Below the pieces are notes generated by a model. It was not told the DNA's origin. It ran no database searches and saw only the letters and a program-made list of their open reading frames with translations. Made by a program: the position numbers and the translations under genes. A DNA stretch of 64,000 bases from a virus (lineage: Duplodnaviria > Caudoviricetes). Below, piece by piece: positions 2,240 through 33,444 of this stretch. The stretch is from IMG/VR virus record IMGVR_UViG_3300042892_000699; one strand, given 5' to 3'. The first letter of the stretch is position 1, and each line of letters opens with the position of its first letter.

Positions 2240-2452
2240 ATGGCAATAACATTTCCAACAGAGCCCACACTAGGGCAAGAATTCGTAGGTGACAACTCTG
2301 TGACCTATCAATGGACCGGCAGCATTTGGAGCACCTTAGTTCCTTGGCTAGCAGGTAGAGCACAGTATGTAGCAGAGGGCGGGTTTGCGGATCAAACCTA
2401 CAACGATAACTTAGACAACACCATCGACGGTGGCAACGGAGCAAAACAATGA
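2240..2452 (+). CDS. Small virion structural protein (FPxxPxxGQ-type N-terminus)
   Basis: AGGA SD and upstream TAAATA. MAITFPTEPTLGQ...YQWTGSIW motif typical of phage fibre-associated proteins. Overlaps the next gene by ATGA. Confidence 0.55.
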   Translation: MAITFPTEPTLGQEFVGDNSVTYQWTGSIWSTLVPWLAGRAQYVAEGGFADQTYNDNLDNTIDGGNGAKQ

Positions 2453-5400
2453 CAACAAGAATCAAACTACGCCGTGACATCGCGGCCAACTGGACACAAA
2501 ATAATCCTGTACTGGCCGAGGGTGAACCAGGACTAGAATTAGACACTGGTAAGATCAAGTATGGTAATGGTACCACTCCTTGGAACAGTTTAGACTATAG
2601 TGGAGCCGGAGCCGCAAGTCTCACAGACGAAGGCAATGTTGTGATCACAGCAGGCTCAACAGAGCACTGGATTGCCACACAGCGTAAAGAACAGGGAGAT
2701 ACTACTCCTAGTGCTCTGCGTTATGACAGCCAAGGTAACCTGTACTCATTGACCAGAACCCATGACGACAGCGCCGATTACGGTGTCACAGTTATTACCA
2801 AATACACAGCGGCAGGCAACATAGCCTGGCAAAAAACATTTAGTGATACTTATCCAATGGCCCTAGCAGTGGACAGTTCGGATCGTGCTTACATTACTAT
2901 GGGCGATGGTAATGAACCAGTAGTCACAGTGATCAAGTTTGATATCATAGGTGATATACTGTGGAAAAAATACTACGACATCGGTGAGGTTCCAGCATAC
3001 GGTGCTTACATTGAAGAAAAGAGCACTACCACATTGGCCTTGGCGATTATGATCACCAGCGGCGGCCCCGACCCTACCACGGTGTTGGTACTGGAAATCA
3101 GTGCTGCCAGTGGTTCAGTGCTGTTGAAAAAATCCTTACAACAACCCGGCGATGATTTGGTGGTGGTCACAGGCATTGATGTTGACCCTGATGAGAATGT
3201 GTTTGTCACTGGTTTTTACTATGATGATAACGATGAAGTGAACAAGATGTTCATTGAAAAACTAGACGAAGACCTAGAGCCTGTATGGACTAAGAGTCTA
3301 GAAGCACCTGACAACTATGATATGTACGGTGGCGACTGTGCGAGTGACGCACTGGGCAATATCTACGCAGTGGGTACCTATAATGTTGAAACTACCAACA
3401 GTAATATGAGTGATAGTAACTTTGACGATCAGAGCGCAGGCATATTGACAAAGTTAAATTCTAGTGGTGTAGTAATGTGGACACGCAGACTTGGACCAGG
3501 ACCTTGCGGCAGTTGGATTGCGGGATTGACAGCCACAGCCACAGGCGATGTTTATCTATCATCCTTGACATTTGCCAATAAAACAGGTGTTCTACCTAGA
3601 GAGGTTTATGAAAACGAACGAGAAAATCTTGGACAGAACAAGATGATTGTGGTTCGCTATGACTCACAGGGAGAGGTGATTTGGCAACGCTATGTTGATG
3701 TGGCCAACCTTTACGAAGAGGAACCCGATGGTCCAGACGTTATGCGCGGTCAGGCCATAGCAGTATTTGATGACAAGTTTGCGGTAGATGGATACGGCTA
3801 CAGTTGGAATACCACACCGTTTCGAAATGGTAGTACAGCAGACGAGGAATACGATTACTTTGTGACACAGTTGCCCACAGAAGGCACAACATTGACCATC
3901 GGCAATCTAGGATTTACAGAAAGCCGTGTGCCAGCCCGCTTTGTGACTCACACCACTAGCGACAGTCCTTTGACTCACGCAAATTGGGAAGAAACTGTTA
4001 CAGCAGAAACTTCTACACTGGTAGCAGACACTGATATTAAAATAGCCAACAGCCTAGTACAGAGCGAAACTTACGAGTATACATTTGGTGCTGATGGTAC
4101 ACTGACAATCCCTAACGATGGCGATCTTAAACTAACACAAACACAGGTTGGTTGGCTTTTTGCCCTAGACGCCCGTGAGGGTGGCGACGACATTGAAGGC
4201 GATTGTATCGCAGTTGACTCACAGGGCAACAGTTACATAGCAGGTGAGGAGGATGACAATGACCGCACATTTGTAATGAAGGTCAGTCCTGAAGGCGATA
4301 GACTGTGGAGTATGAACATTGACGAAACTGAAGGCGATAATGATGGTTATACAACTAGCCTCAAAATTCATCCTGTCACAGGCAATATTATGGTGCTGGG
4401 TGGAATTTACGACACTTACACCTACGGCGTGTTGTACACTATAGATCAAGATACCGGTCGTCTTTTAAATGTTACAGAATTCAAAGACAGTGACGCTGAT
4501 GTTAATCTACACACCATTGCCTATACCAACACAGGAGACTATGTGATAGGTGGTAGCAAGAACGGCGAGTTCAGTGACGAGTTTCCTGTAGTTCCGCAAA
4601 CAGGCAGCGGCACTGGTACTATTGTAATTTTAAGAAGTGCTGTTCCTGTTGACAACATCAGTACTAATTGGCAGATTGGCGGAACTGGTATTTCACCGTT
4701 TCAAAGCATTCTCTATGCGGAACGCTACACAGGATTGACTGGCACAGTGCGTCAAGGTTCGGGTGCTACATTCAACATCACTAACAACGGTGATACAACT
4801 TATAGTGTTGCGGCCTACGACCGAGGCACTGACTATCTTGTAGGACACAAGATCAAGATTCTTGGTACAAGTTTAACTGGTGGAGCAACACCGGACAACG
4901 ACATCATTCTCACAGTGGCTACTAATCACCCTATAAACGGTATGACAGTGACCCATACAGGAACAGCCCCCGGAACCACAGTGGCAACTGATAATGAAGT
5001 ATCGGGCACTAACTACGAAGTAGGTTCTGGATTGACATTTGATTTTGAAGGTCCTAGAGATACTAACGACTACAGTAATTTCTGGGATGATACTATCACC
5101 AGCGGTGGCTCAAACTATGTCCAAGGCGACGTTATTACTGTTTTAGGTACAAGTCTGGGTGGTGCCAGCACAGCCAATGATTTAACAGCAACAGTGACCG
5201 GCCTAAATGTCAATGCTGTGACAGGATTAGAGTTTTCAGGCACAGCACAAAGCACAACTTGGAAGATAGAAACAACCGCACAGGTTAATTTTGCCGGCAC
5301 AGGTAGTTGGAGCATTACCTATTCGAGACAAAATGAATGTCTACTGGTTACTCCTAGTTGGCAGCGTACATTTGGCACAGGTACAGACAGTGATGATGAC

Positions 5401-6630
5401 ATAATTGCGCTAACAATAGACAGTGAAGACAACATTATTGCGACGGGCAATGGACGTGGTGAATTGGCAGCGGACGATTTTTACGATCTAGCCGTGGTCT
5501 ACAAGTTCAACAGCACAGGTACATTACAATGGGCTCGCCAACTCAATGCTGATAATGACGATGCTTACGGAGACAGCGTGATAACCATAGGCACAGACAT
5601 CTATGTTGTACACGATGCCGACGGCGGTAATGCTTATGTCAGCAAGTTAGACAGCACGGGCACAGTCAAATGGCAAAGACTCATTGAAGGCGATGACATA
5701 ACTATTGCCCGCACACCAGACGGACATCTATTGGTGGCCACTGAAGACGAGGTCAATGATGTTGACGACGATGTTATTAAAATATTCCTACTAACACCCA
5801 CAGGGGAAACTGTGTGGAAGCGTTGGCTGTCTGCTATTACCAACGACGACACTTGGCTCGGCAGCACCGGCGAATGTTTAGTCACAGACTCCAACAGTTT
5901 TTATATCACAGGACGCTTTGAGACCTACAATCAAGAACTTGACGAGAGTGGTGATGATTGGGCGTGGGCTGCTCGATTGCCTCTAGATGGCACGGGCACA
6001 GGTGAGTATGGACAGTTCCGCTACACAGATGTTAATACAGAGACCAACGATCTCAGCAATTTCAACTATAGTATCGATGTTGTTGATATAGACGATGCGA
6101 ATAACTATGCTGGCGCATTGGCCAACAACAGTGATCCAGTGGTCAGCACTTCGACCGCGGTGACTGTGATTGCTAACAATATCAGCGACTATGAAGTTGA
6201 CGGCTACTATCCACCAATGATTTTAGAAACTGTGCGTGACACAGACGGGGGCAATATTGTGTTCCCCGACGGTAGCAAGCAGAATACTTCAGCCACAGAC
6301 ATTCCACAGAGACTGTTCAATGGTGTAGATTACACCCTGGGTATGGAAGATCGTGGACATCACATTCTCTGTACTGACGACATTGAAAGCATTCGTATTC
6401 CCTACAATGCTCGTGTGGAGTTCCCAATAGGCACAGTGATTACCATTGTGAATCCTCGAGGTGATAGTGTGGTCATCAACACAGAAGGCAGCAGTATACA
6501 AGTGATGATCCCCGGTGATGATAATTACTCAAACGGTGGCACTTTCCTAGTGTCTGAGTACGGTATGGCCACGCTGTTAAAGATTGGCACGGACTCGTGG
6601 GTGTTGGCTGGCAATGTTGGCGCAGATTAA
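2449..6630 (+). CDS. Large tail fibre protein: Mtd_N/hyaluronidase-type N-terminal anchor plus beta-propeller repeats
   Basis: N-terminus RIKLRRDIAANWTQNNPVLAEGEPGLELDTGKIKYGNG matches the Mtd N-terminal motif. Many (K/R)(F/Y/L)xxxGxxxW(Q/T)R propeller blades. C-terminal IPYNARVEFPIGTVITIV fibre-tip motif. Confidence 0.7.
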   Translation: MTTRIKLRRDIAANWTQNNPVLAEGEPGLELDTGKIKYGNGTTPWNSLDYSGAGAASLTDEGNVVITAGSTEHWIATQRKEQGDTTPSALRYDSQGNLYSLTRTHDDSADYGVTVITKYTAAGNIAWQKTFSDTYPMALAVDSSDRAYITMGDGNEPVVTVIKFDIIGDILWKKYYDIGEVPAYGAYIEEKSTTTLALAIMITSGGPDPTTVLVLEISAASGSVLLKKSLQQPGDDLVVVTGIDVDPDENVFVTGFYYDDNDEVNKMFIEKLDEDLEPVWTKSLEAPDNYDMYGGDCASDALGNIYAVGTYNVETTNSNMSDSNFDDQSAGILTKLNSSGVVMWTRRLGPGPCGSWIAGLTATATGDVYLSSLTFANKTGVLPREVYENERENLGQNKMIVVRYDSQGEVIWQRYVDVANLYEEEPDGPDVMRGQAIAVFDDKFAVDGYGYSWNTTPFRNGSTADEEYDYFVTQLPTEGTTLTIGNLGFTESRVPARFVTHTTSDSPLTHANWEETVTAETSTLVADTDIKIANSLVQSETYEYTFGADGTLTIPNDGDLKLTQTQVGWLFALDAREGGDDIEGDCIAVDSQGNSYIAGEEDDNDRTFVMKVSPEGDRLWSMNIDETEGDNDGYTTSLKIHPVTGNIMVLGGIYDTYTYGVLYTIDQDTGRLLNVTEFKDSDADVNLHTIAYTNTGDYVIGGSKNGEFSDEFPVVPQTGSGTGTIVILRSAVPVDNISTNWQIGGTGISPFQSILYAERYTGLTGTVRQGSGATFNITNNGDTTYSVAAYDRGTDYLVGHKIKILGTSLTGGATPDNDIILTVATNHPINGMTVTHTGTAPGTTVATDNEVSGTNYEVGSGLTFDFEGPRDTNDYSNFWDDTITSGGSNYVQGDVITVLGTSLGGASTANDLTATVTGLNVNAVTGLEFSGTAQSTTWKIETTAQVNFAGTGSWSITYSRQNECLLVTPSWQRTFGTGTDSDDDIIALTIDSEDNIIATGNGRGELAADDFYDLAVVYKFNSTGTLQWARQLNADNDDAYGDSVITIGTDIYVVHDADGGNAYVSKLDSTGTVKWQRLIEGDDITIARTPDGHLLVATEDEVNDVDDDVIKIFLLTPTGETVWKRWLSAITNDDTWLGSTGECLVTDSNSFYITGRFETYNQELDESGDDWAWAARLPLDGTGTGEYGQFRYTDVNTETNDLSNFNYSIDVVDIDDANNYAGALANNSDPVVSTSTAVTVIANNISDYEVDGYYPPMILETVRDTDGGNIVFPDGSKQNTSATDIPQRLFNGVDYTLGMEDRGHHILCTDDIESIRIPYNARVEFPIGTVITIVNPRGDSVVINTEGSSIQVMIPGDDNYSNGGTFLVSEYGMATLLKIGTDSWVLAGNVGAD

Positions 6631-6639
6631 GGAACTGAG

Positions 6640-7020
6640 ATGCCCATATCACAAATATTACTAACAGCAGGCAGTGGCGGAAGTCCTGCTCCTGCTATCA
6701 ACATCTACGGTTGGGTATCGTCGATGAATGAAGGATCAACCAATACCGTAACTGTGGGCTACGAAGACTATCCGCCAACTACTATATATTGGCAGATTGT
6801 AAATGATGGCACAGCAAACGCTGACTGGCTCAATGGAACGATCCCCAGTGGCTCTATTGAGATAAGCGGCACCAATACTGATACATTTAGTTGGACCACC
6901 GCAGAGGATCTCACCACTGAAGGCAACCAAAATTATCTGTTACAAGTAGGCACGACTTTGGGCGGCAACAATTTACTCAATGAGACATTGACTATTACTG
7001 ACACAAGTATAGCTGTGTAG
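6640..7020 (+). CDS. Ig/Calx-beta-like small structural protein
   Basis: AGGA SD; SMNEGST...TTAEDLTTEG...TLTITDTS resembles the Calx-beta pattern. Confidence 0.45.
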   Translation: MPISQILLTAGSGGSPAPAINIYGWVSSMNEGSTNTVTVGYEDYPPTTIYWQIVNDGTANADWLNGTIPSGSIEISGTNTDTFSWTTAEDLTTEGNQNYLLQVGTTLGGNNLLNETLTITDTSIAV

Positions 7021-7024
7021 TAGG

Positions 7025-7459
7025 ATGAGCCAGCATAGACTAGACTTACCCCAAGGGCTGGCAGAACTGATACAACATCAGCGTGGACTGGACTACAGAC
7101 GCAGATACGGCGCAGGCTGGCAGAGTATAGGTTATACTGGTCAGCCTTTTCCATGGTTTGACGCTGTATATAGAGCAGTTGAAGCTGAAGCAGGTAGTAT
7201 AGACACTTGGTGGTTTAATGTTAATCTACAGGGCGAAGGCACGGGTTGGCACACGCACAGTCAGTGGGCACGAGTAGGTGTGCTGTATGTACAGGTACCT
7301 GCGGGTCTTATAGAGTTCAAGAAGGGTGAAGCATATTGGACAGAAACGCCTCAAGCAGGAGATTTACTAGTTTTTCCCGGTAATTTAGAGCATAGAGTAA
7401 GGTCTAATACAAGTGAGCAGGTTAGAATAAGTATAGCGTTCAACTTTAAAAGACGTTAA
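7025..7459 (+). CDS. 2OG-Fe(II) oxygenase family protein
   Basis: WFNVN...HTHS...GVLYV...GDLLVFPGNLEHRV...RISIAFN jelly-roll motifs. Confidence 0.75.
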   Translation: MSQHRLDLPQGLAELIQHQRGLDYRRRYGAGWQSIGYTGQPFPWFDAVYRAVEAEAGSIDTWWFNVNLQGEGTGWHTHSQWARVGVLYVQVPAGLIEFKKGEAYWTETPQAGDLLVFPGNLEHRVRSNTSEQVRISIAFNFKRR

Positions 7460-7463
7460 ATAC

Positions 7464-8171
7464 ATGATGACAATAATTTTAATGACCCTACTAATGACAC
7501 ACTTGACTATAGTGTCAGTTACACTATATCTACATCGCAGTCAAAGTCATAGAGGTGTTGAATTTCATCCTGTATTAGCACACGCAATGCGTTTTTGGTT
7601 GTGGTTGACTACAGGTATGACTACCAAGCAATGGGTAGCAGTACATCGTAAGCATCATCAGAACACCGATGTCGAAGGTGATCCACACAGCCCACACGTA
7701 TACGGCATATGGAATTTAGTTTTTGGTGGCGTAAAGTATTACAATCGTGCAGGCAGTGATGCTGACATGGTTATGAAATACGGAATGGGTACTCCAAAAG
7801 ATTGGATTGAACGTAAACTTTATACACCCCATCACCGATTGGGTATTCTCGTAATGTTGGTTATAGACGTGTTGTTATTTGGTTGGTGGGGATTCTTAGT
7901 ATGGGGTGTACAGATGTTGTGGATACCTTTTTTTGCAGCAGGTGTAATAAACGGACTAGCACATTGGTGGGGATATCGCAATACTGACACTAAAGATAAG
8001 AGTAAAAATTTAATGCCATGGGGCATATGGATCGGCGGTGAGGAATTGCACAATAATCACCATGCAGATATCGCAAATCCTAAGTTTAGTCAGAAGTGGT
8101 GGGAATTTGACATAGGTTGGATGTACATTAAAGGGCTAGAGTTTTTGGGTTTAGCCAAGTTAAAAGGGTAA
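7464..8171 (+). CDS. Membrane fatty-acid (delta-9 type) desaturase, auxiliary metabolic gene
   Basis: Three His boxes (HRSQSH, HRKHH, HNNHH), DPHSP and WWEFDIGW motifs, hydrophobic segments. Confidence 0.9.
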   Translation: MMTIILMTLLMTHLTIVSVTLYLHRSQSHRGVEFHPVLAHAMRFWLWLTTGMTTKQWVAVHRKHHQNTDVEGDPHSPHVYGIWNLVFGGVKYYNRAGSDADMVMKYGMGTPKDWIERKLYTPHHRLGILVMLVIDVLLFGWWGFLVWGVQMLWIPFFAAGVINGLAHWWGYRNTDTKDKSKNLMPWGIWIGGEELHNNHHADIANPKFSQKWWEFDIGWMYIKGLEFLGLAKLKG

Positions 8172-8548: not shown

Positions 8549-11500
8549 ATGCAGTTGTTCGACCTAATCAGAAATAAAAAACCATTGCTCGAAGGCGGCA
8601 ATGTATCAAGTCAAAGTCCAGGTTGGCAAGGTGCTGCTGATCAAGAAGCAGAAGAAATTGATCTAAAGATTCACGACCGTGATCACATGGTGGCTCAACT
8701 GCGAGAATTATTGTCTGCACAAAACGAATCATTTAAAGCAGCCTACGGCAAATATATTTGGGATCCAAAACTATTGGCATCGGGAAAGATGCTCAGTGGT
8801 AGCAGCTTACAATTCTTTGATGTTAAGGGAATCAATACACAGGACTTCTTAAACAAACTAAAGAAAACAAAAGTTGGCGACATCGACACGCAGATTGACC
8901 AGGATATGGGCGATGAAGTCACTGCTTGGTTAAAGAGTATTATTGGTAAGAAAGTTGGCAACGGCACATTCTTAGGATTTAACAGTTCGTTATCAAGCAT
9001 TTGGTTGCTAGATGATCCGCAGGTTCGTATTCAAGTTGATTATGAATTAGGTCCGTATGACGCTAAAACAAATGCACCAACTGAATGGTTTGCCTACAGT
9101 CATAGTAGTCACTATGATGACATGGCTGCTGGTATTAAAGGTGTATTCCACAAATATATCAACCGTGCTCTAACACATGCACAGTCCAGTGAAAAGTATG
9201 TAGCCCGAGTACTTAAGAAAAGTGTTAAGATTAGTGATGCTCCCGTTACAGACAGCGACTACAGTTTTGCAGTCAGCAGTTCTCAGGGCGGCGGCATGAG
9301 CATAAAGTATAAGCCATACATCGATCCTGCTACAGGACAGCATATGGAAAAAGACGGCATTCCTGTTATGCAACTGCTGGATCCAAAAGACCGCGACTAT
9401 ATTCAAAATTTAGACCAACAGTTCCAGATGAACTTCGGTCGTAAGCGTGGTGTTGCTGATCGAAACTTGCAAGGTAGCTTTGTAGGAACACTACAGCTAA
9501 TGAACAAGTCGTTTGAACCTGAACAAATTGAATCCGTAACTCGTGCATTCCTAGACATTCTATTTGGACCCGGAGCACAGATGATTACTAAAGATGATCC
9601 AGCTCGAGATCGTGATGTTAAGTTTGCCGCAGTAGATGCTATGTTGCTAGGCGGTGGAGGGGTTAAGCCTCTAAACTTACCAAATGCTCAAGGCCTAAGA
9701 CAAGAAGCAGTTAAGATGGCAATGGACTATGCAGACCAGTTCAATGCCAAACGAGGAAATGCACTCAGTACCGAAGTAGCAGAAGATGCCGCAGCAGAAG
9801 TAGCAGCAAAGCCAGACTATGCTCGCCAAGGTATCAAACACCTGTACAACAGACTGCCAGATGGTCGTGTAAGTACAGCAGAAATGAAGAATGCAGATTT
9901 CTTAGAAATTGCCAAGGCAATTGCAGACAATGGTGGCAAACTTGACGGTGTGCCTATCAGTTTGAAAGTAGACGGCGCAGGCATTCGATTCGGTAAAGAT
10001 CAAAGTGGTCGTCCGTTCTTCATGACCAGCAAAGTGACTACTCCATTGTATCAAGATGATGTAGGTTATTTTACCAGCTTTGGTCAAGAAAAAGGTCAGG
10101 ATGCAGAGACATTGGCAAGAACAAAGAATTATGACAATGCACTGGCATTGATTACCGGTAGCAAGTTTATACAATCACTACCTGCAGACACTATTGTACA
10201 AGCAGAAATGATGTATAATCCCATGGCACAACAAACTGACCAAGGACTAAAATTTGTCAATATTCCTTACGATCCTAAAAAGCTAGGCAAGCAGATGACA
10301 CTGGTGCCTTTTGTATTCAAACAATACAGCACAGGAGACGAAAGACCCGATGCTGACAAGATCAAAAAGCGTTTGTTAGCAGCCAGTGATAGCAACATTA
10401 AAATTGTCAGTAATAATCTAGAACAAAAAGGCATTAACGTCAGCAAGATTATTAATCCTATTCTAAACTTAGATCCTAAAGACAAAGCTAATAAGCCTGC
10501 GTTCGATCAAGCTAAACAAGCACTAAGCGATGCTATTATTAATAATCCTAAATTAGCAGGCAAAGATGCGCTAGGCGACAACATGGAAGGTGTTGTTGTT
10601 AATATGCCTAACGGTCAAATATTTAAAGTCACTAGTCAGCAGATGAAGTCGGCTATGGCTGCTAAAATGGCTCAACCGGGTGCAAAACGTCAAGGTCCCC
10701 TAAAGACCGCAGTGGTAGCAGTTGGTAGTTTTGCAGGACATCTAGGACACGAAGACTTGTTTAACGAAACTGTTAAGAAGGCCAACGAATTAGGCGGTGA
10801 TCCTTACCTGTTTATTGGCAATGCAGTGGGTGCAGACGATCCTATCCCAACAGACGTTAAGGTACAGACATGGCATAAACTATATCCGCAGTATGCCAAC
10901 AATATCGGTGCTGTAATGCAGGGTGGAAGTTTAATGCAAAAGGTCAAACACGAATTGATCAGTCCGCAGCCGGGCAAGCCTCCCAAGTATGACAACATTG
11001 TTATCATGGTAGGTGAAGATCGTAAAGACATGCCTATCGCAGGTGCGCTAATGAAGGCTGTTAATAAGTTTCCGGGCTACGAGCATGTTAAGGTCGGTTT
11101 GGAAACTATCCCAAGAACACGACCTATAAGTTTTACTAAACTACGCGATGTTCTAAAAAATCCCAATGCTACTCCGGAACAGCAGTATGCAGTATGGGCG
11201 CAGGGATTTAACGCACAACAATTAGGTAAAGATTGGATACTACATCTTATGGACATCTCAAGAAAAGGTATGGGCATTGTTCAACAGCCCGCAGCAGCAC
11301 CACAACCAGTACCGGTTGCAGAACAAAGATTATTTAACGCATTGATTAGAACACAGAAAACGCCAATGTTTGAAAATGCGCCGACCAGTCAAATGGTTAG
11401 AGACCTAATCAATCCACAAGGACGCGAAGCACAGAAGTATGCTAAGTTCGACAGTGATAGAGAACAGCGTAGAGCCAAGATGGAAAAGGGTGCATTAGCA

Positions 11501-12934
11501 GATCGTAATAGCCGCAAGTATTCTAGCGAGAAAGACGATTGGGGCAATTTAAAGAAAGAAGAATTCAATAGTGAGTACGATGACGAAGCAGGAATGGCGC
11601 AGAGCAATTTACGCACTATGGCTCGTGCGGTTGATGGCTTGTTAAAAACAATCAAGAACAACGACAACTTGCCAGAGTGGGGACAAGAAAAGATTGCCAA
11701 GGCTGAAATGATGTTGGTCAGCGTTTGGGATTATTTGTTAAGTCAAAAAGAATTGGGCATGGATCCTAAGGTTAACGAAAGTCGTGCTCTAGCAGGATTG
11801 AAACAGATTGTTGCAGAACTCAGTAATGAGAAGTTAGGACAGTATAAGAAGGCTGCTGGCGCACAGGCCAGTGCGGCTGACAAGGCAGGCAACACTAAGA
11901 AGGCTGACAAACGCTTCAGCGGCATTGTTAAAGCAACTAAGAAACAGTTTGCCAACGATGAGCAAGGTGTGGCGGAAGGCTTGAATGAATTTGCACCAGG
12001 CAACTTTGATGGCGGCGATGACGAAACTCCAGGTTCGTGGGACAACTTTATTAAAGCGTTTGATCCAGAAATTAGAAGAATGGGATTTGGTATGGACAAG
12101 CGCAGTTCGCACGATGCTAGAATTTATGCACACCCCGAAGCACAAAAAGGTATTATGGTTCGCCAACACCCAGAAAAAGACAATGTTTATTATAAACTGT
12201 TTCAATTCTTTAACAAAGGTGAAGATGAAGTTGGTTTGGCAGATTTGTCGCAAAACGGCGCTGCCAGTGTGTTAGTTAAAGTTGAAGATTTCTTAAACGG
12301 TGAGCAAGGTGTGGCAGAGGGTGCTCCAATTGTAGTAGCACAGGCTCCTATCCACATACGCAATCCTAAAAAGGCTCCACAACCATTTAGAAATAAAGGT
12401 GACATTGTTCCCGACACAAAGCCACCAAGTACTGAAAAGCGTGGAGTTAAAGGTCGTCCAGGCCAAAGACCTATGCCAAAGTATGATGAAGGCTTGGAAG
12501 AAGGATTTGGTTCTAAACTTGCAGGACTAGGTCTTGCCGGAGCAATGGCACTAGGGTCCGCTGGAGCAAACGCTAGAGTCTCAGGAGATCAAGATCCCAA
12601 TGTCAATCGTTTAACAGGCAAACCCAATGTAACACAGGTTGCTCCTAGCGATGTTAAATCAGCGGCATCTGCAGGATTTAATAAAGAGTGGTTGCAAAAA
12701 GCCGCTGATCCTAATAGAACTGGCCGTTATATGATCAGTGTCGAAAAGGCACAAGAACTTTTAAACAAGATGAATGCCGTTGACGAAGCTAAGAAAAAAG
12801 GTGCTGATGGTAAAGCCTGTTGGAAAAATTATCGCTACAACGGTACTGAGAACGGTAAAGACAAGTGTGTGCCAGTAGGTGAAGATGTTGAAAATATTAT
12901 GGGCGCACTGATCGAAAATCTTATTAGAAAATGA
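8549..12934 (+). CDS. Multidomain polyprotein-like internal head protein with Pol-beta-type, ligase-type and HxGH-type nucleotidyltransferase domains followed by short modules
   Basis: LSGSS...GDIDTQ...QVDYE; ISLKVDG...QAEMMY...EGVVV...FKV; VVAVGSFAGHLGH...SFTKLR; then small modules delimited by [LVI]xE and QGVAEG. Confidence 0.6.
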   Translation: MQLFDLIRNKKPLLEGGNVSSQSPGWQGAADQEAEEIDLKIHDRDHMVAQLRELLSAQNESFKAAYGKYIWDPKLLASGKMLSGSSLQFFDVKGINTQDFLNKLKKTKVGDIDTQIDQDMGDEVTAWLKSIIGKKVGNGTFLGFNSSLSSIWLLDDPQVRIQVDYELGPYDAKTNAPTEWFAYSHSSHYDDMAAGIKGVFHKYINRALTHAQSSEKYVARVLKKSVKISDAPVTDSDYSFAVSSSQGGGMSIKYKPYIDPATGQHMEKDGIPVMQLLDPKDRDYIQNLDQQFQMNFGRKRGVADRNLQGSFVGTLQLMNKSFEPEQIESVTRAFLDILFGPGAQMITKDDPARDRDVKFAAVDAMLLGGGGVKPLNLPNAQGLRQEAVKMAMDYADQFNAKRGNALSTEVAEDAAAEVAAKPDYARQGIKHLYNRLPDGRVSTAEMKNADFLEIAKAIADNGGKLDGVPISLKVDGAGIRFGKDQSGRPFFMTSKVTTPLYQDDVGYFTSFGQEKGQDAETLARTKNYDNALALITGSKFIQSLPADTIVQAEMMYNPMAQQTDQGLKFVNIPYDPKKLGKQMTLVPFVFKQYSTGDERPDADKIKKRLLAASDSNIKIVSNNLEQKGINVSKIINPILNLDPKDKANKPAFDQAKQALSDAIINNPKLAGKDALGDNMEGVVVNMPNGQIFKVTSQQMKSAMAAKMAQPGAKRQGPLKTAVVAVGSFAGHLGHEDLFNETVKKANELGGDPYLFIGNAVGADDPIPTDVKVQTWHKLYPQYANNIGAVMQGGSLMQKVKHELISPQPGKPPKYDNIVIMVGEDRKDMPIAGALMKAVNKFPGYEHVKVGLETIPRTRPISFTKLRDVLKNPNATPEQQYAVWAQGFNAQQLGKDWILHLMDISRKGMGIVQQPAAAPQPVPVAEQRLFNALIRTQKTPMFENAPTSQMVRDLINPQGREAQKYAKFDSDREQRRAKMEKGALADRNSRKYSSEKDDWGNLKKEEFNSEYDDEAGMAQSNLRTMARAVDGLLKTIKNNDNLPEWGQEKIAKAEMMLVSVWDYLLSQKELGMDPKVNESRALAGLKQIVAELSNEKLGQYKKAAGAQASAADKAGNTKKADKRFSGIVKATKKQFANDEQGVAEGLNEFAPGNFDGGDDETPGSWDNFIKAFDPEIRRMGFGMDKRSSHDARIYAHPEAQKGIMVRQHPEKDNVYYKLFQFFNKGEDEVGLADLSQNGAASVLVKVEDFLNGEQGVAEGAPIVVAQAPIHIRNPKKAPQPFRNKGDIVPDTKPPSTEKRGVKGRPGQRPMPKYDEGLEEGFGSKLAGLGLAGAMALGSAGANARVSGDQDPNVNRLTGKPNVTQVAPSDVKSAASAGFNKEWLQKAADPNRTGRYMISVEKAQELLNKMNAVDEAKKKGADGKACWKNYRYNGTENGKDKCVPVGEDVENIMGALIENLIRK

Positions 12935-13206
12935 TCAAGCAGTATTACATCACTCACGAAAACATGGTAAAGGACAGTCCGGACGATTGCTATCTTGCAC
13001 CGGAAGATCCTATACACGCCTTAAAGACTGTTAGCTATATGGGCGGGCTAAATGCTACAGAACGACTGCACGAATACAATGCATCCGTAAGAGAATCCAA
13101 TTACGTTAAATCTGGTGCTGTAGATAAGGCTAAATACATGAAAGAGCATGGAATTAAATCTGGTTCTCCCGCATGGTTTGAACTATGGTACGGAAGAAAT
13201 AAATAA
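12931..13206 (+). CDS. Hypothetical protein
   Basis: Clean ORF overlapping the upstream stop (ATGA). Confidence 0.55.
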   Translation: MIKQYYITHENMVKDSPDDCYLAPEDPIHALKTVSYMGGLNATERLHEYNASVRESNYVKSGAVDKAKYMKEHGIKSGSPAWFELWYGRNK

Positions 13207-13210
13207 CATT

Positions 13211-13576
13211 ATGCGCATCAATGAACTAATCACTGAGATGAAAACAGGTAAAATTACCAAGAGACAGCAACAGGCTACTCGTGGTTTAAATACCTACAAG
13301 GACGGTGAAAGAGCCGACAGCACTTATACATCCTATAGATTAGGCATGGCAGTAGCAGGAGCCAACGGAAAAGACCCCATCGAAATGAATGGTAAGAGTT
13401 GGGCGGGTAAAACTAAAACTACTCATCCTTACAGTAAAGAAGAACAAGAAATGCTTAAACAAGCATACAAGGTAGTTGGTGCAAACTATAAAGATGTAAA
13501 TAAAGGTGATATGGAAAGTCGCGAACTGGACAATACATATACCGTAAGCCCTGTAGCAAACTGGATGAAGAAATGA
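13211..13576 (+). CDS. Hypothetical probable internal head protein
   Basis: Likely start is ATG 13211 (MRINELITE), 5 nt after TAAATA, rather than 13148. The leader resembles the T4 capsid-targeting sequence. Confidence 0.55.
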   Translation: MRINELITEMKTGKITKRQQQATRGLNTYKDGERADSTYTSYRLGMAVAGANGKDPIEMNGKSWAGKTKTTHPYSKEEQEMLKQAYKVVGANYKDVNKGDMESRELDNTYTVSPVANWMKK

Positions 13577-15516
13577 ACAACGAATTTAAAAAATCAAAAA
13601 GCAATAACGAAACTCGCTATACATTAGAGTCAATGACAGCAGGTGCAACCGGTTCAGGTAGTGTTGCTACAGCACCGAGCTCGTTAGGCAAAGTCCAAAA
13701 GCGCGGAAATATCTTGGCACAAGAAGCAGGTAAAGACAAAGTTCCTGCAACTACTCCCCGTAATTTTGTTGCTAAGAATGCCAAGTCCAGTGGTGCAGGC
13801 GCACACAAGGATAAGAAAAAAGAACAAAAGCAGGGCGCTGCAAAACATAAAAAGCCCTATATGGAATCTCTACGCACAAAAATTGATCAACTAAAATCAA
13901 AGTTAGCAGAAGCAGGCATGCCATTTCGTGGAGTAGGTGGTGCATTCAATCGCGGCGATGATGAACGACACGACTTAGATCCAACAGAATGGTACATTGT
14001 CAAAGATGGCAAAATGTTCAAAACGTCTGTCTACCCTAATCAAGTACAGTTAGCAATGGCCCAAGGTTATAGTCGTACTAGAGATGAAGCCAAAGCAAAA
14101 GCAGGCAAGCAAGGTGCAGCGGAAGGCGTTAGAGATTTAGGATATGATGCACAATCTCTTATTATGAAACTACGCCGAGATGTAGAAGAAAAAAGATTAC
14201 AACCTACTCCACAAGCAGTATTAGCAGCCGCAAGAGAGTTAGCAGGTGATATGGAGTTTGCTCCTCAACTGTTAGTAAAACAAGTATTAGGGCAAGGTGT
14301 GGCGGAGGCAACAGGCGATGAGAGATTTGACAGCATGATGGGACAGATCACAGGCGGTGCTGGTGCCAGGCAAGGTGTAGATAATTTGAATAAGTCCCTC
14401 ACTGCAAGAACAGGCAGCGACCCCGAGACTGCATTGGCCAAATTTGGTCAGGAATTTATAAAATGGCTTGAAGATCTTTGCCGTGAGTTTGCCAAGCAAG
14501 GTGCAGATAGATTTAATAAATTAAAAAAATTAAGCGAATTCGAAGACGGTGGCGAAACCATGGCGCACTGGTTGATTGATGTTGCTAAACAGACCAAGAC
14601 CTCGGGTATTACACTGGCAGACATACAGGAATTTTCTAGCGAGTTTAATACCCATGGAATGTGGGCCTGGCAAATGTTCCCTATAGCATGGAGTCAGAAC
14701 GAATGGCAAGACTATAAAGATCAATGGACTGGTCCCAATGGTTACATAGCCAATCTGAGACATAGTCCTGAGCAAGGTGTGGCGGAAGGCTCAGGGGCAA
14801 ATAAAACATACCTAGCAATGGCATATCTAAAAGCAGTAGTCATGGCTCCTACTGGAACACCAGAGAATGAAAGAATAAGAAATTGGCAAGAGAAGCTAGA
14901 AGACGAATTTGATATTGAAATGGACACCGCTACTCTTGCTCAAATGCTGCCACAATTTGATAGTATGCTACAGGCAGGCAAACTTGATAAATTACAAAAC
15001 CGAATGGCTTCTCGTGGCGAACTTGAAATAGGCGAGTCTAATCAAGGTGTGGCGGAAGGCGTTGAGGACAGAACAAGTTATCAAGTTGCTAAAATTCTAT
15101 CAAATCGTGGAATCAAATACGATCCTGCACAAGAAAATGAATTAATCAATGCAATAGGCATGGTACTGGTAAAAGAATTAAACATGAGTCCAAAGCAGGC
15201 AAGGAATTTGATCAGTTATGATGAAGACTTTGTTTCCGACACAATGGGCGAGTTGAGAGGTATGGAACAGTCAGTATCCGAAGTTGATGTATATATGGAA
15301 AGTCTTGCCCACTCATTGCAACAGGTCCTGAGTGAAAAAGCAGTGAGCAAGAAGCAACAAAAGTTTATGGGCATGGTTCATGCTGCACAGAAAGGTGAAA
15401 AGCCTGCCAGCAAAGAAGTTGCCAAGACAGCCAAGGACATGGGCAAGAAAGATGCCAGGGACTTTGCATCAACTAAGCACAAAGGTCTTCCTGAAAAGAA
15501 GAAATCAAAAAAGTAA
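13573..15516 (+). CDS. Modular polyprotein-like internal head protein with four QG(V/A)AE(G/A) linkers
   Basis: Lys-rich basic modules; LES/LAE/VAE/LSE candidate cleavage motifs; four copies of the 18-bp repeat in frame. Confidence 0.6.
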   Translation: MNNEFKKSKSNNETRYTLESMTAGATGSGSVATAPSSLGKVQKRGNILAQEAGKDKVPATTPRNFVAKNAKSSGAGAHKDKKKEQKQGAAKHKKPYMESLRTKIDQLKSKLAEAGMPFRGVGGAFNRGDDERHDLDPTEWYIVKDGKMFKTSVYPNQVQLAMAQGYSRTRDEAKAKAGKQGAAEGVRDLGYDAQSLIMKLRRDVEEKRLQPTPQAVLAAARELAGDMEFAPQLLVKQVLGQGVAEATGDERFDSMMGQITGGAGARQGVDNLNKSLTARTGSDPETALAKFGQEFIKWLEDLCREFAKQGADRFNKLKKLSEFEDGGETMAHWLIDVAKQTKTSGITLADIQEFSSEFNTHGMWAWQMFPIAWSQNEWQDYKDQWTGPNGYIANLRHSPEQGVAEGSGANKTYLAMAYLKAVVMAPTGTPENERIRNWQEKLEDEFDIEMDTATLAQMLPQFDSMLQAGKLDKLQNRMASRGELEIGESNQGVAEGVEDRTSYQVAKILSNRGIKYDPAQENELINAIGMVLVKELNMSPKQARNLISYDEDFVSDTMGELRGMEQSVSEVDVYMESLAHSLQQVLSEKAVSKKQQKFMGMVHAAQKGEKPASKEVAKTAKDMGKKDARDFASTKHKGLPEKKKSKK

Positions 15517-15530
15517 TTGAGCAGGAACCG

Positions 15531-15740
15531 GTGGCACCGACAGAGGAGCCTGCTCAACAAACTAAGCCAGTCGGACCACAGCCTAAACTAAGGCCCGATA
15601 TGCCTATTGACTATTGGAAACAACGTTTTCAAACTGCTGACCCAAATCAATATCGTCAATTTAAAAACAAAGATCCAGAAAAGAAAGATCGTATGGCTAT
15701 AGCAGCCTACTACGATGCAAAGCAGCCCACAAAAAAATAA
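15531..15740 (+). CDS. Small ORF, probably a -1 frameshift extension of the 647-aa protein
   Basis: GTG start has no SD and lies inside a hairpin. Frame is open from 15495 and is the -1 frame at A_AAA_AAG (15507-15513). Confidence 0.5.
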   Translation: MAPTEEPAQQTKPVGPQPKLRPDMPIDYWKQRFQTADPNQYRQFKNKDPEKKDRMAIAAYYDAKQPTKK

Positions 15741-16410: not shown

Positions 16411-16680
16411 ATGGGCAAAGCATTTGGCGCACCAGAACAGGCAAAAATTAAACAGATCGTATCCGAAGGTATGACTGTTATGCAGGAAATTCAAGACCTT
16501 ACCGAAGGATTGAATGAAACTATCAAAGCCGTAGCAGAAGAACTAGAGGTAAAACCTAGTGTCATTCGCAAGGCAATCAAAATCGCACAGAAAGATCAAT
16601 GGGATCAAGTGTTCCGTGAGTTCGACGATCTCGAAACTATTGTCGATATTGCAGGCCACGCTAATCGTCGTGAAGACTGA
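16411..16680 (+). CDS. Small dsDNA-binding protein (T4 DsbA/GapR-like)
   Basis: About 90-aa helical pattern (IKAVAEELEVKPSVIRKAIKI) located just before the DNA polymerase. Confidence 0.55.
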   Translation: MGKAFGAPEQAKIKQIVSEGMTVMQEIQDLTEGLNETIKAVAEELEVKPSVIRKAIKIAQKDQWDQVFREFDDLETIVDIAGHANRRED

Positions 16681-31012: not shown

Positions 31013-32095
31013 ATGTCAAAAGAAATTTCCGCAAATCGCACAGTTGGTCCAAACGAAGCTAAGGCAGCTATCCGTAAATGCTTGAAAAAGCAACGTCCGG
31101 TTTTTATGTGGGGTCCCCCCGGTATTGGTAAATCCGATATTGTTAAACAACTAGGCGATGAGTCAGATCGCGAAGTCATCGACGTTCGTTTGAGTTTATG
31201 GGAACCTACTGACATTAAAGGTATTCCGTATTACAATTCTACTTCCAATACAATGACTTGGGCACCTCCTGCAGAACTGCCTACAGATCCAGAGTCTACT
31301 GCTATTCTGTTTTTGGATGAATTGAACTCTGCGGCTCCTGCTACACAGGCAGCGGCTTTCCAGTTAGTATTGAATCGTCGTGTTGGTACTTATCAATTGC
31401 CAAAAGGTGTTAGCATTGTTGCCGCAGGTAACCGTGAAACTGACAAGGGTGTTACTTATCGTATGCCTGCTCCGTTGGCTAACCGTTTCCTGCATTTGGA
31501 ACTCCGTACAGATTTTGAAGACTGGCATCAGTGGGCAGTTAACAATAGAATTCACGAACAGGTTGTCGGTTATATTGGTTTTGCCAAGCAGGACTTGTAT
31601 GACTTTGATCCAAAGTCTAGCTCACGCTCATTTGCTACTCCTCGCTCGTGGTCATTTGTATCCGAATTGTTGGAGGAAGATGATGTTCCAGAAAACACAT
31701 TAACTGATTTGATTGCAGGTGCTATCGGTGAGGGCCTTGCTGTTAAATTTATGGCACACCGCAAGGTTGCTAAACAGATGCCGAAACCAGAAGATATCTT
31801 AGCAGGTAAGATTAAGAAATCGGATATCAAAGAAATCTCTGCTATGTATTCGTTGACTATTAGCCTGTGCTACGAGCTCCAAGAAGCTGATAAAAAGAAA
31901 GCTAAGAACTGGGATGAAATGGCAGACAACTTCTTTGGATTCATGATGGATAACTTCCCAACTGAATTAGTTGTTATGGGTGCAAAGGTTGCGTTGACTA
32001 ACTATCAACTGCCGTTTGATGCTAGCAAATTGAAGAACTTTGACAAGTTCCACGATAAGTACGGCAAGTACATTATCCAGGCAATGGAAGGTTAA
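31013..32095 (+). CDS. MoxR-family AAA+ ATPase
   Basis: Walker A GPPGIGKS, Walker B ILFLDELN, AAGNR sensor, PLANRF arginine finger, ATPRSW. Confidence 0.9.
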   Translation: MSKEISANRTVGPNEAKAAIRKCLKKQRPVFMWGPPGIGKSDIVKQLGDESDREVIDVRLSLWEPTDIKGIPYYNSTSNTMTWAPPAELPTDPESTAILFLDELNSAAPATQAAAFQLVLNRRVGTYQLPKGVSIVAAGNRETDKGVTYRMPAPLANRFLHLELRTDFEDWHQWAVNNRIHEQVVGYIGFAKQDLYDFDPKSSSRSFATPRSWSFVSELLEEDDVPENTLTDLIAGAIGEGLAVKFMAHRKVAKQMPKPEDILAGKIKKSDIKEISAMYSLTISLCYELQEADKKKAKNWDEMADNFFGFMMDNFPTELVVMGAKVALTNYQLPFDASKLKNFDKFHDKYGKYIIQAMEG

Positions 32096-32099
32096 AATT

Positions 32100-32118
32100 G
32101 GCCCTTAGGGGCCTTTTT
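32100..32118 (+). terminator. Rho-independent terminator
   Basis: GGCCC-TTAG-GGGCC followed by TTTTT, just after the ATPase stop. Confidence 0.75.
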
Positions 32119-32120
32119 AC

Positions 32121-32149
32121 TTGCTCTTTTGATAAATTGAATGTATAAT
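32121..32149 (+). promoter_or_regulatory. sigma70-type promoter for the VWA/metallopeptidase gene
   Basis: TTGCTC-N17-TATAAT, then AGGAG SD. Confidence 0.65.
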
Positions 32150-32175
32150 AGTACTATCGCAACTAGGAGTAATAA

Positions 32176-33444
32176 ATGTCCGCAGTAATGAAACAAGAAA
32201 AACAAAAGAAACAAGATTGGTTAGGTAAAACTTTTAGCGAAAGTGAAAAAGCTAAAATTCTCGATAAACTAATTACCGCACGAGTTGGGCTCTTGCTCCG
32301 CCATCCGTTTTTTGGTAATCTTGCTACCCGAATGAAAATGGTAGAGGCTAGCGACTGGTGTCAAACCCTTGCAACAGATGGTCGCAATTTTTATTTTAAT
32401 TTAGGATTTGTAAATAAACTTACTCCTAAGGAAGCAGAGTTTGGCTTTGCACACGAGGTCCTCCATAATGTATTTGATCATATGGGTCGGCGAGACGGGC
32501 GCGACCCTCAACTGTCAAACATTGCCGCAGACTATGCCGCTAACCAAATTCTTAAAGACGAACGTATCGGTACAGTTCCTAGCTTTATTAAGATTTTCCA
32601 GGACGACAAATATCGCGGATGGAGTTACGAGCAGATTTATCAGGACCTTTACGACAAGGCTGAAAAGATTGATATTTCCCAATTAGGGGAATTGCTCGAC
32701 GAACACCTAGATGGTGAGGGTGAAGATGGGGAAGGTGAAGGCAAAGATGGAGAAGAAATTGACGGAAGTAGTAAGGGCCGGCCACGTTTGACTGCAGAAG
32801 AAAAGAAACAAATCCGTGATGAGATCAAAGAAGCTATGGTAGCGGCTGCTCAATCAGCAGGTGCAGGTAAAGTGCCTGCAGGTATTGCTAGAATGATCAA
32901 AGACTTTACTGAGCCAAAGATGGACTGGCGACAACTGTTGCGCATGAATATCCAAAGTATTCTTAAAAGCAATTTTAGCTTTGCTCGCCCTAACCGCAAG
33001 AGTCAACAATGTGGCGCTATCTTGCCAGGTATGATGAATGAAGAAACTATTGACGTATCTGTAGCAATCGATATGTCTGGTAGTATTTCAGATGCTATGG
33101 CTAAAGATTTCTTGTCAGAAGTCAAAGGTATTATGGATGAGTACAAGGACTTTAAATTAGATTTGTGGTGTTTTGATACTAACGTATACGGTTACAAACA
33201 ATTTACCGGAGATACTGCTGATGATATTAACGAGTACGATTGCCAAGGTGGCGGTGGTACTGATTTTGATGCAAACTGGGAATTCATGAAGTACAATGAT
33301 ATTCAACCCAAGAAGTTTATTATGTTTACTGACGGTTATCCCTGCGGTAGCTGGGGAGATGAAGATTATTGTGATACTATCTTTATTATTCACGGTAACG
33401 ATGCCATAATTTCTCCATTCGGCCAGACCGCGCATTATAAATAA
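32176..33444 (+). CDS. DUF2201-type metallopeptidase plus VWA domain protein (MoxR partner)
   Basis: TLATDG...AHEVLH (HExxH), acidic linker, VAIDMSGSI MIDAS, GGGGTDF, MFTDG. Confidence 0.85.
   Translation: MSAVMKQEKQKKQDWLGKTFSESEKAKILDKLITARVGLLLRHPFFGNLATRMKMVEASDWCQTLATDGRNFYFNLGFVNKLTPKEAEFGFAHEVLHNVFDHMGRRDGRDPQLSNIAADYAANQILKDERIGTVPSFIKIFQDDKYRGWSYEQIYQDLYDKAEKIDISQLGELLDEHLDGEGEDGEGEGKDGEEIDGSSKGRPRLTAEEKKQIRDEIKEAMVAAAQSAGAGKVPAGIARMIKDFTEPKMDWRQLLRMNIQSILKSNFSFARPNRKSQQCGAILPGMMNEETIDVSVAIDMSGSISDAMAKDFLSEVKGIMDEYKDFKLDLWCFDTNVYGYKQFTGDTADDINEYDCQGGGGTDFDANWEFMKYNDIQPKKFIMFTDGYPCGSWGDEDYCDTIFIIHGNDAIISPFGQTAHYK
33436..33443 (+). promoter_or_regulatory. T4-type late promoter TATAAATA
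   Basis: Perfect TATAAATA 13 nt upstream of ATG 33457. TAAATA cores also at 2218, 7457, 8169, 13200, 30233 (+) and 40665, 60848, 61318 (-). Confidence 0.6.

Follow-up and report, generated by a model that had tools for sequence, protein, structure and literature searches.

The internal protein IPIII of phage T4 is steered into the prohead as cargo by a 10-residue capsid-targeting sequence, of which residues 8 and 10 control processing (PMC9026906, PMC5694885). In the hyperplastic regions of T4-type phages, small non-essential genes are flanked by promoter-early stem-loop (PeSL) repeats, for which shuffling and mini-circles have been described, and genes are proposed to be exchanged through recombination between repeats that lie close together (PMC2839356, PMC4122927). 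In the gp38 adhesin of T-even phages it is short, in-frame, glycine-rich motifs that bound variable segments, and these are proposed to be swapped by homologous recombination (PMC3157838). The polyvalent proteins of phages and conjugative elements combine many unrelated domains that are predicted to be delivered together with DNA and to be cut into units by embedded metallopeptidases (PMC5512222). The subject here is an 18-nucleotide (nt) coding repeat, the QGVAEG linker, which joins the modules of two polyproteins in a 64,000-nt stretch of the virus record IMGVR_UViG_3300042892_000699 (the window, meaning the whole stretch that was analysed). The feature is real, statistically overwhelming and widespread, and it is at this repeat that the modules are exchanged as cassettes.

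Linker copies in two polyprotein genes

With the 18-mer CAAGGTGTGGCGGAAGGC as query, a match threshold of three mismatches or fewer and dinucleotide-preserving shuffles as the null, the window contains exactly six matches, all on the + strand; the shuffles average 0.02 and none of them gives six. Every copy is in frame, encoding the peptide QG[VA]AE[GA], within open reading frames (ORFs) at 8549-12934 (1461 amino acids, aa) and 13573-15516 (647 aa). They are listed with a degenerate copy; arrows mark the putative cut discussed below, and L121 is one of the loci (L numbers) with which the window was compared.

11963..11980, + strand: linker copy 1, the exact 18-mer, EQGVAE↓G; the high-identity match with L121 stops at 11979
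12305..12322, + strand: linker copy 2, three mismatches, EQGVAE↓G
14110..14127, + strand: linker copy 3, two mismatches, KQGAAE↓G; the L121 match stops at 14126
14293..14310, + strand: linker copy 4, three mismatches, GQGVAE↓A; this variant moves together with cassette d
14773..14790, + strand: linker copy 5, the exact 18-mer
15043..15060, + strand: linker copy 6, the exact 18-mer
12488..12505, + strand: degenerate linker, six mismatches, EGLEE↓G; ~800 base pairs (bp) are inserted here in L121 (window 12477/12497 against L121 4128/4925)

In the first gene a large N-terminal part that is conserved (modules P, Q, R and S, of which R, residues 684-912, is cytidylyltransferase/NMNAT-like) precedes two linker-bounded C-terminal cassettes; the second is a string of smaller modules.

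8549..12934, + strand: polyprotein gene 1, 1461 aa, with matches to phrog_19290, phrog_3041 and phrog_26930
11978..12319, + strand: cassette T of gene 1, 114 aa, residues 1144-1257
13573..15516, + strand: polyprotein gene 2, 647 aa, in the order a / b / c / d / e / f-g
13573..13914, + strand: module a, residues 1-114, ending KLAE↓A, with a weak DUF7230 match
13915..14124, + strand: cassette b, residues 115-184, at or near the C-terminal end in several relatives
14125..14307, + strand: cassette c, 61 aa
14308..14787, + strand: cassette d, 160 aa
14788..15057, + strand: cassette e, 90 aa
15058..15513, + strand: terminal modules f and g; module g, residues 583-647, is DUF3008 by a weak Pfam match

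Most of what the first-pass annotation had described from the letters alone is confirmed by this analysis: six in-frame copies in two genes, three of them exact (those at 11963, 14773 and 15043, with no mismatch); an exact run of 23 bp common to copies in different genes (11963 and 14773); spacers within each gene that keep the frame (342, 183, 480 and 270 bp, all multiples of 3) and encode mutually unrelated modules, since comparison of the modules between the window's linkers with one another gave no significant similarity; and the scarcity of GCG, which accounts for 5% of Ala codons elsewhere in the two ORFs (GTG accounts for 7% of Val codons there). The two degenerate relics that it had placed at 14371 and 14497 did not hold up. 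They have 8-9 mismatches, and they are rejected as boundaries because both lie inside cassette d, which travels as a single block. A four-mismatch copy at 6668 is out of frame and probably due to chance.

Exchange of cassettes at the linker

Comparison with other loci shows cassettes deleted, inserted, replaced, duplicated and reordered, whole and in frame, at the linker DNA (~20 nt, AG-CAAGGTGTGGCGGAAGGC), and it shows this among members of one lineage as well as with loci that otherwise have little in common with the window. L121 is 95-99% identical to the window upstream of 11979 (window 11001-11979 corresponds to L121 2994-3972, and window 12306-12477 to L121 3957-4128); it lacks window 11981-12304, which is cassette T, precisely between two linkers, and a single linker copy is left. 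L123 lacks window 14791-15042 (cassette e), again with one linker left. Deletions that leave exactly one copy of a repeat are the classic outcome of homologous or copy-choice events. Replacement is also seen in L121, where the 165-bp cassette c is swapped for 916 bp of other sequence within the same two linkers. As to loci that are otherwise distant, L075 and L044 contain cassette c at 96-97% identity and no other segment at 90% identity or more to the window, and L126 contains cassette d at 100% over 504 bp, likewise with no other stretch at or above 90%; cassette e is found in L126 at 86.7%, in a different ORF, and there is no further similarity to the 6 kb compared.

Over all fetched loci, 36% of the internal ends of DNA matches (at least 90% identity) fall in a linker, against 0.95% of random positions. 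Inside the polyprotein ORFs, which make up 17.5% of the sequence but contain 53% of all breakpoints, the figure is 66%, against 5.1% expected and 8.3% in the highest shuffle. At the protein level the ends of high-scoring segment pairs peak at the linker Gln on the left and at its Glu or Gly on the right.

The order of modules is permuted as well: a b / c / d / e / f g in the window, and a f / b / d / ? / ? / b, c / d / f g or a c / b in relatives, with cassettes c, d and e each also occurring singly inside otherwise different arrays. Module a stands at or near the N-terminus wherever it is present in relatives, and module g at or near the C-terminal end in most of the loci that carry it. An independent protein database yielded 1861 matching proteins, most of them matching through one cassette at varying positions, and cassette d behaves in the same way. 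The 173 non-redundant polyprotein ORFs break down into 606 modules in 455 families, the internal modules having a median length of 81 aa.

The window stretch is present in many lake-water metagenomes, and lake samples were compared at the level of assembled contigs. The window form and L121-like forms co-occur in single samples, and both forms of cassette c are present in run X9. In run X1 the contig with cassette e has a depth of 125, compared with ~19 for its neighbours, as is expected if cassette e sits in many genomes. Logan contigs from other lake samples span the junctions at 11963, 12305, 14110, 14293 and 14773 with few or no differences, and the bridging of these junctions in independent contigs argues against an assembly artefact; the linker at 15043 is spanned by none among the Logan pieces listed. 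Joints from 11980 to 14770/14771 were also seen in contigs and were not used, their sides of 18-21 nt being a mere reflection of the shared repeat.

Conservation of the linker DNA

The linker is conserved as DNA, beyond what codon usage and the divergence of neighbouring codons would account for. The exact 18-mer is found in at least 120 IMG/VR contigs, often in 2-4 copies per contig; the synonymous 18-mer CAAGGTGTTGCAGAAGGT, with commoner codons for Val, Ala and the final Gly, is found in 12, once in each. A search of 596 Gb of prokaryote sequence with the real 18-mer gives 56 matches, of which 55 are single; many come from high-GC actinomycetes, and we judge the number to be near chance. (The sole triple match, locus L246, is an 8.9-kb contig of a metagenome-assembled genome, CAILDT010000116.1, binned as 'uncultured Bacteroidetes', with three exact copies; the contig probably derives from a phage and may give a hint at the host.) Among 50,697 GenBank phage records, a megablast search with the region brought up no close DNA relative.

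Codons were tested on loci found by protein homology and not by the 18-mer, with the codon usage of the same ORFs as background. Among non-redundant QGVAEG sites, 18 of 29 (62%) are encoded by the exact 18-mer, against an expected fraction of 0.0009. The linker Ala codon is GCG in 97% of cases (background 7%) and the Val codon GTG in 93% (background 16%). The bias reaches one codon upstream, the preceding Glu being GAG in 25 of 27 cases (background 21%), and the common codons CAA, GGT, GAA and GGC are used at 76-100%, well above codon usage. In homology-ascertained pairs of modules with 30-85% aa identity, codon identity at conserved residues is 74-86% in linkers and 53-66% elsewhere; the corresponding values for the whole locus set are 88-91% and 48-62%. 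The edges of conservation are sharp, at about -2 to +17, and the loci that bear the 18-mer range in GC content from 34 to 52%. A linker scan of five jumbo genomes gave 2-6 copies in each, always on one strand and at 1-3 loci; the reversed control gave 0. Variants of the peptide correspond to single-base changes, GAA or AAA standing for CAA where the first residue is Glu or Lys, which suggests that the linker copies are related by descent and not convergent.

That the repeat is a recombination joint, as the first-pass annotation had proposed, is thus strongly supported by breakpoints in the linker, loss and replacement of single cassettes, permuted order and frozen synonymous sites. The checks proposed with it, that gain, loss and reordering of modules in related loci break at the repeat and that its synonymous sites are more conserved than flanking codons, both come out in its favour (66% against 5.1% for the former, 18 of 29 against 0.0009 and 74-86% against 53-66% for the latter).

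The linker as a putative protease site

We infer, with what seems to us good motivation, that QGVAEG is a cleavage site for a gp21-type prohead protease and that the released cargo is delivered to the host. Judged by its genes, the window is part of a T4-like myovirus from lake water: a baseplate wedge gene (phrog_10646), a gp25-like gene and a gp5-like hub-lysozyme are of T4 type, and a family B DNA polymerase, an exonuclease, thymidylate synthase and dihydrofolate reductase (DHFR) are also encoded. Two N-terminal leaders bear on the question.

8549..8596, + strand: leader of polyprotein gene 1, MQLFDLIRNKKPLLE↓G, a candidate prohead-targeting and cleavage peptide that resembles the T4 gp23 N-terminus, ...ELLNKWKPLLEGEG
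13211..13576, + strand: stand-alone 121-aa gene directly upstream of the 647-aa polyprotein, with leader MRINELITE↓M

Leaders of 10-20 residues with an aliphatic-x-Glu end are recognizable in this latter gene, in gene 1 (...KKPLLE↓G; the protein starts ...IRNKKPLLE↓GG, and its resemblance to gp23 is that of a short motif only) and in module a, where a conserved leader of 19 residues, MNNEFK...Y(T/V)LE↓S, is kept in homologues of the 647-aa protein. The N-termini of the 121-aa gene family read MRAxEFIxE, to be compared with MKTYQEFIAE↓A in T4 IPII and IPIII and MAKINELLRE↓S in gp24 (all T4 leaders, including ...ELLNKWKPLLEGEG of gp23, from NC_000866). This gene family adjoins polyprotein genes in the loci that were checked (L121, L122, L128, L131 and L134) and has homologues in four of the five linker-bearing jumbo contigs.

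Three of these five contigs encode Peptidase_S77 (gp21) and Gp23; at the place that, judged by eye, corresponds to L-T-E↓A of T4, the gp23 homologues of these three read L-A-E↓N or L-K-E↓N. We take the T4 gp23 cleavage position to be ...FLTE↓A. The linker peptide is, moreover, conserved in its own right. Divergent linkers retain V-x-E↓G although their DNA differs, and in L135-L145 cassette e, 96-99% identical to the window copy, is flanked by the divergent and differently encoded LVQE↓G and HGVEE↓G. Module g is 73% identical to ORF93 of cyanophage S-SCSM1, and phrog_3041 is common to the cytidylyltransferase-like domain of gene 1 and S-SCSM1 ORF91; both S-SCSM1 proteins have been detected in purified virions by mass spectrometry (PMC9602691). 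The first-pass annotation's second suggestion, of a protease linker and an injected payload, accordingly stays plausible and its support is indirect: a T4-like phage, a gp21-type protease in relatives, the leaders and the S-SCSM1 virion proteome.

A proposed mechanism and its alternatives

Taken together, these observations make it reasonably probable, in our estimation, that the two genes encode cargo polyproteins, that their cassettes are exchanged at the linker and that the linker is a prohead-protease site. Each polyprotein has a conserved N-terminal part with a T4-like leader; cassettes of 60-160 aa, unrelated to one another and variable in their make-up, come after it and are joined by (E/K)QGVAE↓G, the ~20 nt of linker DNA serving as a short direct repeat for homologous recombination or copy-choice. 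A gp21-type protease would cut V-A-E↓G after Glu, with an aliphatic residue at P3, so that one gene could load the capsid with many small proteins, which would be freed by cleavage as the head matures and would probably pass into the host along with the DNA. Conservation of the linker at the nucleotide level would most simply be both by-product and driver of cassette traffic: only cassettes flanked by the common sequence could recombine into other arrays, and each exchange would re-homogenize the linker. The phage's own recombination machinery might suffice, with no dedicated enzyme. A more specific version, which we put forward tentatively, has the linker as a dual-code element under second-order selection, at once a protease-site peptide and shared docking DNA for a recombinase-free, in-frame trade of effector cassettes among lake phages, possibly across families.

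Several observations count against parts of this reading. With regard to exchange, about a third of the breakpoints in polyprotein ORFs lie outside a recognizable linker, loci L001-L120 were ascertained by the 18-mer itself, and the junctions of cassette e in L135-L145 lie a few nt outside the 18-mer, so that identity over its full length is not strictly required. With regard to cleavage, the 64-kb window contains no head genes, and for that reason the phage's own protease is not seen. Two of the five linker-bearing jumbo contigs, one of them 99% complete, give no Pfam match to gp21, gp23, the HK97 capsid or the S78 protease. (A search of the same two contigs, G002 and G005, for the T4 portal gave no match, and neither did its controls, which makes this search uninformative; the 99%-complete contig does carry a homologue of the leader-bearing small gene.) Outside canonical linkers, V.EG is only 2-fold enriched in the polyproteins. 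Finally, P3 of the linker is Val and not the Leu or Ile of the T4 consensus, and one copy in the window has Ala there (QGAAE).

The jumbo contigs in which no gp21-type protease is detected, and the departures from the T4 consensus at P3, are what one would expect if the linker did no more than space domains flexibly and serve as a recombination joint, and if the polyproteins acted uncut as multidomain proteins, inside the virion or elsewhere. We regard this alternative as unlikely, albeit the most serious of those considered. A bare spacer has no need of an invariant Glu followed by a small residue, nor does it explain why the V-x-E↓G peptide persists where the DNA has diverged, why T4-like leaders are found on the same and neighbouring genes or why the gp23 propeptide site of relatives is L-A-E↓N.

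The sharp edges of conservation and the restriction of the motif to the coding strand could also be read as selection at the level of RNA or translation, with recombination as a side effect: a ribosome pause at module boundaries, brought about by the rare GTG and GCG codons and Shine-Dalgarno-like AAGG repeats, or a weak G-quadruplex of two tiers, GG-TGT-GG-C-GG-AA-GG. It is in fact exactly these two rare codons that give the 18-mer its four GG runs. CAA, GGT, GAA and GGC are fixed at 76-100% as well, however, which neither a pause nor a G-run model needs, and by our own estimate from the standard energy rule the two-tier quadruplex is only marginally stable. We consider an explanation of this kind improbable.

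Yet another possibility is a dedicated enzyme, a homing-type endonuclease or site-specific recombinase, that recognizes the ~20-bp site and mobilizes cassettes. The length of the element is typical of a homing-endonuclease site, and the element is spread over phages that possibly belong to different families. However, a scan against Pfam, PHROGs or both, which covered 39 ORFs of the window and not every small one, turned up no integrase or recombinase family, and the one candidate endonuclease, at 32176-33444 ('HNH endonuclease' by its PHROGs label), is by Pfam a DUF2201 metallopeptidase/VWA protein instead. The 18-mer has no dyad or inverted-repeat symmetry and no reverse-strand copy in the window; an endonuclease that cut every linker would cleave its own genome; and the deletions that leave one repeat bear the signature of plain homologous or copy-choice events. 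On these grounds a dedicated enzyme is very improbable. That metagenome assembly produced chimeras at a short repeat common to many contigs, and thereby only the appearance of shuffling, is hardly to be credited. All of the data are metagenomic contigs, and some joints with sides below 30 nt are indeed repeat artefacts; yet for five of the six junctions in the window there are bridging contigs of independent origin, drawn from several samples, the same variant architectures turn up more than once in separate contigs (L121/L122, L127-L130, L135-L145), and a repeat of 18-23 bp is shorter than the k-mers normally used in final assembly.

Neighbouring genes and other features of the window

A second small gene lies just downstream of polyprotein gene 2.

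15531..15740, + strand: stand-alone 69-aa gene; in L155, L100 and L042 its homologues make up the C-terminal module of polyproteins that bear the linker

Its fusion elsewhere as the last module suggests gene fusion or fission at the 3' end of the array. DUF3008, found here as module g, is a stand-alone small gene in cyanomyophages. Some polyproteins with cassette d (P0055, P0057 and P0078) also bear sigma-70 region 4 domains (PF04545 and PF08281), several homologues have 'chorismate mutase' as their putative JGI product name, and a look-up in the ESM Atlas with cassette d gave no usable match. Single-sequence AlphaFold2 modelling of the 647-aa protein gave a mean pLDDT (predicted local distance difference test) of 37.5, and the model is for that reason uninformative on exposure of the linkers. 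The T4 late-promoter motif TATAAATA occurs once in the whole window, compared with ~6.5 occurrences expected from shuffles. Five further features of the window deserve mention.

2449-6630, + strand: 1393-aa fibre-like protein with an N-terminal Mtd_N domain and beta-propeller (SBBP) repeats
7025-8171, + strand: 2OG-Fe(II) oxygenase and fatty-acid desaturase-like gene upstream of polyprotein gene 1, with one 120-aa ORF between
16411-16680, + strand: 89-aa protein that is 87-100% identical in many otherwise divergent loci, its neighbours being far less conserved
31013-33444, + strand: MoxR-like ATPase (phrog_1297), then the DUF2201 metallopeptidase plus VWA-like protein
43081-57279, - strand: single 4732-aa ORF between fibre-like genes and a gp6-like baseplate wedge gene, presumably a giant fibre or baseplate-attached protein

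Comparison with described systems

A search of the literature found no published description of the QGVAEG linker, the one paper that matched the peptide being an unrelated study of fungal proteomics, and no paper that matched DUF3008. If cargo polyproteins with exchangeable, cleavable cassettes are indeed what the window encodes, they show how large aquatic phages vary the set of proteins that they carry into the host, by swapping modules at a short sequence that serves as recombination joint and processing site. In that case they would also provide a design rule, taken from nature, by which foreign proteins could be packed into T4-type capsids in the form of cleavable strings, and the 18-mer would be an easily searched marker for hundreds of candidate injected effectors.

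Integron arrays share with the window ordered, unrelated cassettes, a recurring boundary site and a content that varies between relatives. An integron depends on the tyrosine recombinase IntI and on attC sites that form hairpins and lie between separate genes; in the window, in contrast, the cassettes are fused in frame and the repeat is a coding direct repeat. The label 'integron-like' given to the array in the first-pass annotation does not stand as a statement of mechanism, there being no integrase in the ORFs scanned, no dyad and no copies on the opposite strand. Polyvalent proteins resemble the window's polyproteins as long chains of many unrelated domains; they differ in that no repeated linker conserved as DNA has been described for them (PMC5512222). 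Their processing peptidase and signature conflict domains were not found in the window ORFs, for which Pfam and PHROGs give the cytidylyltransferase-like domain and weak matches to DUF7230 and DUF3008.

In function, the closest precedent is the T4 internal-protein and capsid-targeting system. IPI-III, Alt and the other head proteins processed by gp21 are likewise diverse, fast-evolving small cargo of T4-type phages (PMC9026906, PMC3012670, PMC5694885), with short N-terminal leaders ending in aliphatic-x-Glu, and the processing expected in both is a cut by the prohead protease after Glu. T4, however, has a separate gene and one leader for each cargo protein, whereas the window has many modules in one frame with a repeated internal site; the nucleotide sequence of that site is kept in many phages, and the processing and packaging of the modules are putative.

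In mechanism, the closest precedents are PeSL shuffling and gp38 motif recombination, both of T4-type phages. At PeSLs, where close relatives differ by an insertion, a deletion or a replacement, the difference stops at the repeats, and this is what the window linker shows too. PeSLs, roughly 50-70 bp in length, are intergenic and combine a promoter with a terminator hairpin, whereas the window repeat is ~20 bp long, coding, in frame and without a hairpin, and is a peptide motif as well. With gp38 the window shares short, conserved, in-frame motifs that delimit exchangeable segments; the His boxes of gp37 are further recombination motifs in T-even tail-fibre adhesins. The segments of gp38 are parts of one receptor-binding fold, whereas the modules of the window are unrelated and autonomous, and the motif between them doubles as a putative protease site. 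The pattern is in keeping with ordinary homologous recombination between short direct repeats, of the kind described at PeSLs and gp38 motifs. If our reading holds, the repeat-mediated shuffling known in T4-type genomes between genes and within single domains would extend to arrays whose autonomous modules are joined in frame.

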